Notes under the pieces: model-generated
Seen by the model: the letters and a program-made list of their open reading frames with translations, nothing else
Told to the model about the DNA's origin: nothing
Databases searched by the model: none
Shown: in pieces, positions 45,085 through 45,863 of the stretch
Numbering within the stretch: the stretch's first letter is position 1
How the letters are laid out: every line of letters begins with the position of its first letter
Made by a program: the position numbers and the translations under genes
Assembly: GCA_965214265.1 (NCBI GenBank)
Contig: CBDCBK010000010.1
Coordinates: 678,230 to 742,229, forward strand
DNA length: 64,000 bases
Reading direction: 5' to 3'
DNA from: Acidimicrobiia bacterium
Lineage (GTDB): Bacteria > Actinomycetota > Acidimicrobiia > Spongiisociales > ZC4RG35

Positions 45085-45863
45085 GCTCGCCACGAACACT
45101 ATTTGGCGCACGTCCTCGGGCTGAGACCCGGGATGGTCGTGGCTGACCTCGGTTGCGGCGTTGGCGGACCGCTAATTGAGATTGCTCGATTGTCCGGCGC
45201 CAGGATCGTGGGAATTAACAACAATGCTTACCAAATCGAACGCGCCCGAAAACACACCGAAGAAGAGGGCCTGACTCATCTGGCTGAGTACATGCAATGC
45301 GACTTCCAGGACGTCGATGCTCTGGACAACTCGTTCGACGCGGTCTACGCCATCGAGTCAAGCTGCCATGCGCCGGACAAACTCAGCGTATATGGCGAGG
45401 TGTTCGCTTGCTGAATCCGGGCGCGTGCTTTGCTAATTACGAGCGGTGCCTGACGGATCGCTTCGACGCGAGTAATCCCCACCACCTCAAGATCAAGGCT
45501 GACATCGAGCTAGGAGGCGGCCTGCTAGACATTGACTACCGTCATGCTGTTGATGACGCACTTCGAACGGTGGGATCCGAGGTGTTGGAAATACGAGATC
45601 TTGCGGAACAGTCAGGTCCGTCCATCCCTTGGTATCAACCGCTGATCGGTTCAGGTCTATCCCTGGCCAGCTTTCGCAGTTCATTGATCGGACGCTTTGT
45701 CACCCACATCTCACTGCGAGCGCTTGAGGCGTTTCACGTTGTGCCGCAAGGAACGGTTCGCGTATCGAAGACTTTGAATCTCTGCGCGGCTGCGATGGTC
45801 GAGGCGGGCCGGCTGGGTATCTTCACGCCAATGTACTTTTTGCACGCTCGCAAGCCGGCGTAG
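45085..45863 (+). pseudogene. sterol 24-C-methyltransferase (Erg6/SMT)-like SAM-dependent methyltransferase remnant: 5'-truncated and frameshifted near 45400
   Basis: Homology begins at '[29 protein letters not shown]...GINNNAYQIERARK...AIESSCHAPDKLSVYGEVF', then in the next frame 'LLNPGACFANYERCLTDRFDASNPHHLKIKADIELGGGL...IPWYQPL...LGIFTPMYFLHARKP'. It is collinear with Erg6 (ARHEHYLA..., EIELGDGIP, LFTPMMLFVARKP). Confidence 0.65.

Follow-up and report, generated by a model that had tools for sequence, protein, structure and literature searches.

We show that a stretch of 64,000 nucleotides from the chromosome of an Acidimicrobiia bacterium (GenBank assembly GCA_965214265.1, contig CBDCBK010000010.1, positions 678,230 to 742,229; hereafter the window) carries the remnant of a gene for a sterol 24-C-methyltransferase (SMT). 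Very probably, this is what is left of a bacterial-type SMT gene that was acquired by horizontal transfer and is now dead. By descent the remnant is a member of the SMT family, and its sequence predicts that it is unable to encode a functional enzyme: the native start codon and promoter are absent, and the C-terminal 152 codons are out of frame. Intact members of the family, ~341 aa long, are built from a class-I S-adenosylmethionine (SAM)-binding Rossmann domain, an aromatic Region I that binds the sterol, and a tail of the Sterol_MT_C type. Their predicted reaction is the SAM-dependent methylation of the sterol side chain at its delta-24 bond.

Two reading frames account for the remnant (Table 1). 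The frame 1 translation from 45085 includes ...NNNAYQIERA...AIESSCHAP...VYGEVF (in its long form ...NNNAYQIERA...AIESSCHAPDKLSVYGEVF), continues for two more codons and is terminated by a TGA at 45412-45414. From 45405, frame 3 reads RLLNPGACFANYERCLTDRFDASNPHHLKIKADIELGGG...IPWYQPL...GIFTPMYFLHARKPA and stops at 45861-45863. An earlier sequence-only reading of this DNA had listed SMT-specific blocks, in order, at 45085-45863, and translation and tblastn recovered all of them there. When the 64-kb window was searched by tblastn with an intact 341-aa homologue (P0001), residues 83-189 aligned to 45085-45405 and residues 190-341 to 45405-45860, with a joint E-value of 9e-122; the first alignment as output spans residues 73-189, of which the first ten match poorly. 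Over 45085..45404, the remnant is 79-83% identical to three intact homologues (P0001, P0002 and P0004; tblastn), and the agreement with intact SMTs is, as judged from these comparisons, far beyond chance.

Table 1. Features of the SMT remnant and its surroundings, in window coordinates
Feature	Position	Strand	Description and evidence
SMT remnant, whole	45085-45863	+	Codons 83-341 of the 341-aa SMT family
SMT remnant, frame 1 part	45085..45404	+	Codons 83-189; Region II DLGCGVGGP and Region III AIESSCHAP; translation, tblastn, Erg6 alignment
SMT remnant, frame 3 part	45405..45863	+	Codons 190-341 and stop; Region IV and Sterol_MT_C; translation, Pfam PF08498, tblastn
Frameshift site	45403..45404	+	TTT (Phe189) to TT; DNA alignment with four intact genes
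Rearrangement junction	45085..45086	.	Homology to sister lineage L092 ends, SMT homology begins (Ala83 codon GCT, 45085-45087)
Native spacer	44874..45084	.	211 nt 3' of the DUF2461 stop; common to L092; unrelated to SMT; no codons 1-82
Small Gly-rich open reading frame, 3' stub	45028..45084	-	~18 codons and stop; intact (104 aa) in L092 at 7632-7946 (+)
Lineage-specific variable islet	44880..51880	.	7 kb; GC 57.8% vs 61.9% in the rest of the window; SMT remnant is its first element
Junction module A	45864..46470	+	tRNA-Leu downstream-like part, ATGGTGGGC at 46374-46382, 95-nt repeat D1 at 46376-46470
Junction-module copy B, flank-like part	51712-51900	.	Directly abuts tRNA-Leu; noted span including the tRNA end 51712-51908
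tRNA-Leu(CAG), right-hand islet anchor	51901..51989	-	ARAGORN, Rfam, alignment
DUF2461 gene	44187..44873	+	Last gene before the islet syntenic with most relatives; Pfam PF09365, E 1.4e-64

Both lesions proposed by the sequence-only reading were recovered. Alignment of the DNA with four intact genes traces the frameshift to a single missing T: where the intact relatives have GTG TTT CGC, the window has GTG TT- CGC at 45400-45407. SMT residues 1-82 found no match anywhere in the 64-kb window (three intact homologues as tblastn queries, at word size 2 and E-values up to 10). The deleted N-terminus, which had been put at ~100 aa, measures 82 aa in the numbering of the bacterial family and 104 aa in that of yeast Erg6, homology starting at Erg6 residue 105.

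Family tests were run on the frameshift-corrected translation, in which the two stretches are joined. Sterol_MT_C (PF08498) scored 79 bits (E 2.8e-22, cut-off 21.7) over profile positions 3-65 of 66. The CMAS model (PF02353) scored 40.8 bits over profile positions 54-140 of 273 only, a part of the Rossmann fold, and no full-length CMAS match including the lipid-binding C-terminal half was obtained. A large protein database holds 1896 homologues, of which the best 120 are 71-83% identical to the remnant, mostly exactly 341 aa long and all with PF08498; some of the best are named sterol 24-C-methyltransferase by their sources. In the PDB, a search by sequence turned up no solved structure that matches across the C-terminal region of the SMT, the best match (MitM) covering the Rossmann part only; no SMT structure has been reported so far (bioRxiv 10.64898/2025.12.19.695621).

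We consider it extremely improbable that the remnant derives from a generic class-I methyltransferase of the cyclopropane-fatty-acid (CFA), mycolate or UbiE type, or that the gene came directly from a eukaryotic host. The class-I Rossmann SAM-binding core is common to the remnant and the CFA/mycolic-acid methyltransferases described by CMAS, and other generic methyltransferase Pfam models also match this part. NCBIfam, which is without an SMT model, gave only weak matches to other methyltransferases, all below their cut-offs (27-35 bits for CFA synthase models, against cut-offs of 400-650). However, Sterol_MT_C is matched end to end and CMAS only in part, so that the remnant has a complete Sterol_MT_C domain in place of the CMAS-type C-terminal half. 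Best matches among CFA or mycolate methyltransferases, or a missing Sterol_MT_C match, which the sequence-only reading had named as outcomes that would overturn it, were looked for and did not occur; its choice of an SMT over a generic class-I enzyme holds. As to a eukaryotic source, Regions II, III and IV and Sterol_MT_C of eukaryotic SMTs (Saccharomyces cerevisiae Erg6, plant SMT1/SMT2) align readily with the remnant. Yet its identity to Erg6 is 42%, over 258 residues, against 65-83% to the bacterial family, which is shorter than Erg6 at both ends (341 vs 383 aa), lacks a 7-residue loop and forms its own highly conserved group. The close homologues all lie on bacterial contigs or chromosomes, and nearly all metagenomic (bacterial) SMTs tested fall in clades apart from sponge SMTs (PMC10070321).

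Twenty-five residues are conserved in all functional SMTs, and the Region II motif DxGxGxxGP occupies Erg6 125-133 (bioRxiv 10.64898/2025.12.19.695621). The Erg6 sequence used here agreed with 30/30 published residue-number pairs. The remnant has 17 of the 25 residues, that is, every one that falls inside the retained part; the eight absent ones (Y74, T78 and six of Region I) all lie within the deleted N-terminus, and intact relatives P0001 and P0002 have 25/25. Region II is present as DLGCGVGGP, with D125, G127, G129, G132 and P133 aligned to Erg6, as are Region III (E195 in AIESSCHAP) and Region IV (G217 in LLNPGA). The sterol-binding Region I (YEYGWGxxFHF; Erg6 81-91; conserved G84, W85, G86, F89, H90 and F91) is deleted.

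With Region I, start codon and promoter lost and a frameshift added, the locus would be unable to yield an active SMT. It holds no uninterrupted reading frame with a start codon for the family. Could a shortened methyltransferase, or programmed ribosomal frameshifting, still give a working product? We regard this as very unlikely. All conserved residues inside the remnant are intact, and a 103-aa open reading frame (ORF) with a TTG start lies within it at 45103-45414, but Region I (GWGxxFHF) is gone and the C-terminal domain is out of frame. Programmed frameshifting was rejected because the site, GTG TTC GCT, is not a slippery heptamer. Population data also speak against a working gene, as all five single-nucleotide polymorphisms (SNPs) found between two copies of the remnant are non-synonymous, one of them at a conserved glycine.

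These copies come from two further assemblies. L001, a 742-kb contig of near-identical DNA, carries a pseudogene identical to that of the window, and the 34-kb contig L002, which stems from another sample, shares both the truncation and the frameshift (samples ERZ25068966 and ERZ25071132 for L001 and L002). The five SNPs distinguish the window from L002 over 779 nt and include G352D at the conserved SMT residue; the 1985 nt upstream of the remnant hold two (Fisher p = 0.022). This pattern fits unconstrained drift under relaxed constraint. Together with the deletion of Region I and the frameshift in three assemblies, it bears out the earlier suggestion that the gene is probably non-functional. 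The copies also bear on whether the lesions are an assembly or sequencing artefact and the real gene is intact, which is hardly credible. The frameshift does lie in a short T run, a typical site of long-read indel errors. However, the window and both contigs, which stem from different samples, agree in the 1-nt loss and in the 5' junction, one contig differing by five SNPs, and the 5' truncation is impossible as a homopolymer error. On L001, the pseudogene appears in public gene calls as two ORFs, one of 93 aa (10947-11228) with methyltransferase/CMAS domain matches and one of 151 aa (11222-11677) flagged ‘Sterol_MT_C’, corresponding to window 45133-45414 and 45408-45863.

Several observations weigh against reading the locus as a dead, horizontally acquired SMT gene. 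The remnant keeps 37/37 family-invariant columns. Of the 118 columns with a conservation of 95% or more, it departs from the family at 4, intact members at 1.8 on average and at 6 at most. Sequence decay alone is no proof that the gene is dead, and its mild degradation argues that inactivation was recent. The window covers 64 kb of a ~2.6-Mb genome, and an intact second SMT copy may lie elsewhere. GC content at third codon positions is 65% in the remnant, compared with 72-79% in core genes, but the native neighbouring DUF2461 gene has 66%, so composition speaks only weakly for a foreign origin. Finally, delta-24 sterol methylation is a predicted activity for this exact clade.

To place the gene within its lineage, we compared the window with seven loci from relatives whose seryl-tRNA synthetases are 82-95% identical to that of the window (L087-L094). 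The gene serS and the adjacent 328-aa gene are kept in all and the DUF2461 gene in most; no trace of an SMT was found in any of the seven loci. The relatives are homologous to the window as far as the DUF2461 stop (44869-44879), and L087 and L088 again from tRNA-Leu (51881). The closest sister (L092, ~94% nucleotide identity) also has no SMT, and its blastn matches to the window cover 43000-45085, at 93.6%, and 49950-51899. At base level, window and L092 agree through ...ACCGGTGGCG and diverge from 45086, and nucleotide homology to the four intact SMT genes begins at ~45083-45085. Microhomology at this junction is at most 1-2 nt.

The junction also cut a native gene. L092 carries a 104-aa ORF with Gly/Ala/Val/Ile-rich repeats (..AIGGxNxxG..) on the strand opposite to the SMT remnant, and the end of this ORF, ...ATGVIAMGGNTTGLLTAP, is matched in the window by a stub that reads ...ATGVIAIGGNTTSLLPIS. 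Since the SMT remnant abuts the stub of an opposite-strand gene, the junction fuses two 3' gene remnants. On the other side of the remnant, window 46047-46098, 3' of the SMT stop, resembles L092 sequence just past the intact small gene.

Absence of the gene from close relatives, the end of L092 homology at 45085 and the lack of synteny with other SMT loci (the flanking genes of the window are shared with none of the 80 best SMT loci from GTDB genomes) argue for a foreign origin. Location at the edge of the tRNA-Leu islet had been taken earlier to suggest horizontal transfer; the empty locus in close relatives and the sister homology ending at the first SMT base agree with this. We propose that an SMT gene, or only a fragment of one, would have arrived from an SMT pool common to sponge-symbiont bacteria. 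A single rearrangement may then have joined the 3' three-quarters of the SMT to what is left of the small native gene, its 3' stub. The 1-nt deletion was probably separate from the truncation and later, whether the gene decayed in situ or was dead on arrival.

An alternative without transfer is that an old Acidimicrobiia SMT, inherited vertically, is decaying here. We consider this improbable. The nearest intact relative with a placeable host, P0004 (82% identity), does sit in Acidimicrobiia, its contig having an enolase with best matches in this class and a gene order typical of actinobacteria, and two further Acidimicrobiia metagenome-assembled genomes (MAGs; L047 and L057) carry the family too. 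However, the SMT is absent from the syntenic locus in 7/7 relatives examined, and the lineage of P0004 is another one, with its SMT at a different locus and a close relative (L095) without SMT. The Acidimicrobiia sequences are moreover scattered in a neighbour-joining tree, in which they nest among Chloroflexota, as do Latescibacterota and Gemmatimonadota sequences. This mixing of phyla concerns a 341-aa family that is 65-83% identical across at least five phyla.

Horizontal acquisition leaves two histories for the remnant. The first, to which we give a chance just short of even, is decay in situ: an intact, working SMT would have stood head-to-head with the small Gly-rich gene, one deletion would have taken the 5' end of each gene together with the promoter region that they shared, and the frameshift would have come after. 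Two joined 3' remnants on opposite strands are the expected product of a single deletion across divergent genes. The likeness of 46047-46098 to L092 sequence past the small gene makes an earlier SMT insertion between them possible, and the frameshift looks like a later, separate event. Against this history, no relative with an intact SMT at the locus was found, and L092 has the small gene intact and no SMT.

The second history, a real contender but one we hold somewhat below an even chance, is that the gene was dead on arrival. A fragment starting inside an SMT would have been integrated by illegitimate or homology-facilitated recombination and would have replaced the 5' part of the small native gene, in which case the SMT would never have been functional here. 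Sister homology ending to the base where SMT homology starts, with so little microhomology, is consistent with such an event. Repeat modules on the right side of the insert recur in the islet and may have offered a homologous anchor, and the islet is visibly recombining, L002 being without 46464-49962. This history needs a donor with an SMT beside similar repeat modules, however, and none was seen among 90+ SMT loci; nor does it explain the frameshift better than decay in situ.

Because the relatives match the window only to ~44879 and again from 51881, the intervening 7 kb are a lineage-specific islet. It is built from a recurring junction module, in which ~190 nt resembling the tRNA-Leu downstream flank are followed by ATGGTGGGC and the 95-nt D1. 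ATGGTGGGC is the final bases of the tRNA-Leu 3' end in reverse complement, and the islet repeats include 8-9 nt of this end. D1 alone recurs at 46994-47088 and 49963-50057, with 76-82% identity between copies. The 3.5 kb that L002 lacks (compared over L002 7764-8398) lie exactly between two D1 copies, with D1 at both breakpoints, and hold a 132-aa ORF, an RNase H, a fragment of a TIR domain and a helix-turn-helix gene. L002 in turn carries further modules past the last flank, including a 1609-aa DEAD/MZB helicase. Such whole-module differences between the window and L002 indicate that the islet is actively recombining.

The islet resembles a set of integrase-less relics, arrayed in tandem, of elements that target the tRNA-Leu 3' end. 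Cis-mobilisable elements (CIMEs) next to integrative and conjugative elements in Streptococcus are an example of such tandem arrays and integrase-less relics at tRNA genes. As in CIME-like arrays, the modules of the islet are separated by repeats with the tRNA-Leu 3' end and strains differ by whole modules; unlike them, the islet contains no integrase gene, and the SMT remnant stands to the left of the first tRNA-end repeat. A 423-aa ORF beside tRNA-Leu was considered as an integrase and rejected, as its sequence is that of a multi-pass membrane protein. The flank-like module, D1 and the 211-nt upstream spacer were not found beside SMT genes elsewhere (90+ SMT loci) and occur only in this species complex. 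Given this and its position left of the first repeat, the SMT is not demonstrably cargo of a module. Within the islet, an RNase HI gene (170 aa) is directly followed by a 116-aa ORF (window 47276-48138, - strand) that matches only the C-terminal part of the TIR domain of CAP12/Pycsar effectors; it is apparently a truncated defence-system effector.

How common are such genes in bacteria? The sequence-only reading had called bacterial SMTs rare, and this did not stand. When one genome per GTDB species was scanned, 260 species had relatives, alongside the 1896 database proteins. Identities, taxa and neighbourhoods are given here for the best 80 of the 260 species; these SMTs are 65-80% identical to the remnant and come almost all from MAGs. 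The host's own genome is not among these 80, below which a frameshifted copy would be expected to rank. Most belong to Chloroflexota/Dehalococcoidia, the others including Caldilineaceae, Latescibacterota, Gemmatimonadota, Acidimicrobiia and Candidatus Multivorans, an Acidobacteriota genus. Many isolate names (RHO, COS, APA and SB06xx bins) resemble published sponge-microbiome MAG sets, from which we presume these genomes to stem. In four Dehalococcoidia genomes (L016, L041, L056 and L079), a second, much more divergent SMT-like paralogue lies near the first; the four make up a deep branch of their own in the neighbour-joining tree.

Members of the family have been assayed. A scan of JGI metagenome contigs found 67%-identical SMTs of 346 and 341 aa on LXNJ01000389.1 and Ga0209021_1000146. 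Both contigs are listed in Supplementary Table 2 among those carrying assayed SMTs, from Petrosia ficiformis and Aplysina aerophoba metagenomes, in a study that found in vitro methylation of desmosterol by 8/10 SMTs of sponge symbionts (Brown et al. 2023, PMC10070321). The study identifies the assayed SMTs by contig, and the link drawn here is to the two contigs. We conclude that the bacterial SMT family is already known, experimentally supported and abundant; the sequence-only reading had for this reason overstated the significance of the remnant. The SMT ORF at 1752-2792 of LXNJ01000389.1 (L097) reads DLGCGIGGS, with Ser at the position of P133, a residue retained by all tested SMTs (bioRxiv 10.64898/2025.12.19.695621). 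Unless the assayed gene is a different ORF of this contig, the P133 statement has an exception.

The remnant belongs to the same family as these SMTs of uncultured, mostly sponge-associated bacteria (PMC10070321; bioRxiv 10.64898/2025.12.19.695621), with the same Pfam architecture at 67% identity and 341-346 aa, and the C-terminal tail GIFTPMYF..ARKP is common to it and the SMTs on the two contigs. It differs from the bacterial SMTs of Brown et al. in being a frameshifted pseudogene with Region I deleted, and its host belongs to Acidimicrobiia, a group that neither that paper nor the preprint mentions.

Genes around intact members give hints about their substrate. Within 8 kb of intact close SMTs, a short-chain dehydrogenase recurs at 21 loci, a KshA-like Rieske oxygenase and a GPP34-cytochrome P450 fusion at 10 each, an FAD amine-oxidase-like protein at 9 and an MMPL transporter that contains a sterol-sensing domain at 8; next to the SMT of the nearest homologue, P0001, stands an ERG4/ERG24-type reductase. 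By a motif scan for the catalytic site of oxidosqualene cyclases (OSC) and squalene-hopene cyclases, none of the 80 close relatives has an OSC within 10 kb. The OSC motif DCTAE occurred only beside distant SMTs of 43-51% identity (L106 and L123). Matches to DxDDTA at the loci and in the window were not cyclase-like on inspection, a judgement made by eye and not by comparison with a cyclase model. This neighbour set and the lack of a nearby OSC fit modification of sterols or steroids, not synthesis de novo, and the substrate of the family is possibly imported host sterols.

The rest of the window is ordinary chromosome, with ppk, pst/phoU/phoRP, an opp transporter, serS, FHA-PP2C-FtsW/RodA-PBP-PknB and dnaB. 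Its seryl-tRNA synthetase has its best named matches, at 83-86% identity, in Acidimicrobiia, and the host is probably a sponge symbiont. Unlike genes of sterol-synthesis clusters, the remnant lies outside any such cluster: among the ~40 ORFs of the window there are no sterol-pathway families, with no gene for OSC, squalene monooxygenase (SQMO), CYP51 or ERG24, and the motif scan found no OSC motif in the window. A large ORF at 34199-36598 has a DxDDTA match and no Pfam family match.

A second variable spot lies ~5 kb upstream of the SMT remnant. Here a phage-type integrase fragment of 220 aa, with a Phage_int_M domain only (38936-39598, + strand), stands beside a tRNA-Ser pair (39944-40166), and the corresponding place in L092 (13130-14915) has larger integrase ORFs and several transposases. 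A large bacterial signal recognition particle RNA containing the Alu domain (Rfam RF01854, 135.7 bits; 40770-41037, + strand) adjoins the two tRNA-Ser genes, in a chromosome that otherwise has the character of Acidimicrobiia.

The remnant is a new but defunct member of a known family; it opens no long-standing question, would not surprise a specialist and has no physiological role of its own. Its value is in its context. The junction, exact to the base against a sister lineage, is a clean example of how an accessory gene enters and decays beside a tRNA-anchored variable islet. Because the 151-aa ORF is still flagged Sterol_MT_C, a survey that counts PF08498 scores this genome as SMT-positive, though the locus cannot make the enzyme. 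A wider reading, which we offer tentatively and think doubtful, is that the SMT was captured as a fragment by illegitimate recombination at the edge of the integrase-less tRNA-Leu array. The locus might then be a snapshot of the rapid gain and loss of a mobile SMT across phyla of sponge symbionts, for which sterol side-chain alkylation would be a dispensable accessory trait. If so, an SMT gene or PF08498 match in a MAG would be a poor predictor of sterol alkylation capacity, and symbionts with an SMT and no nearby OSC would modify host sterols rather than make their own. The bacterial SMT family, which bears on the debate over 24-isopropylcholestane as a ‘sponge biomarker’, reaches into Acidimicrobiia, where it appears to be gained and lost on short time scales.

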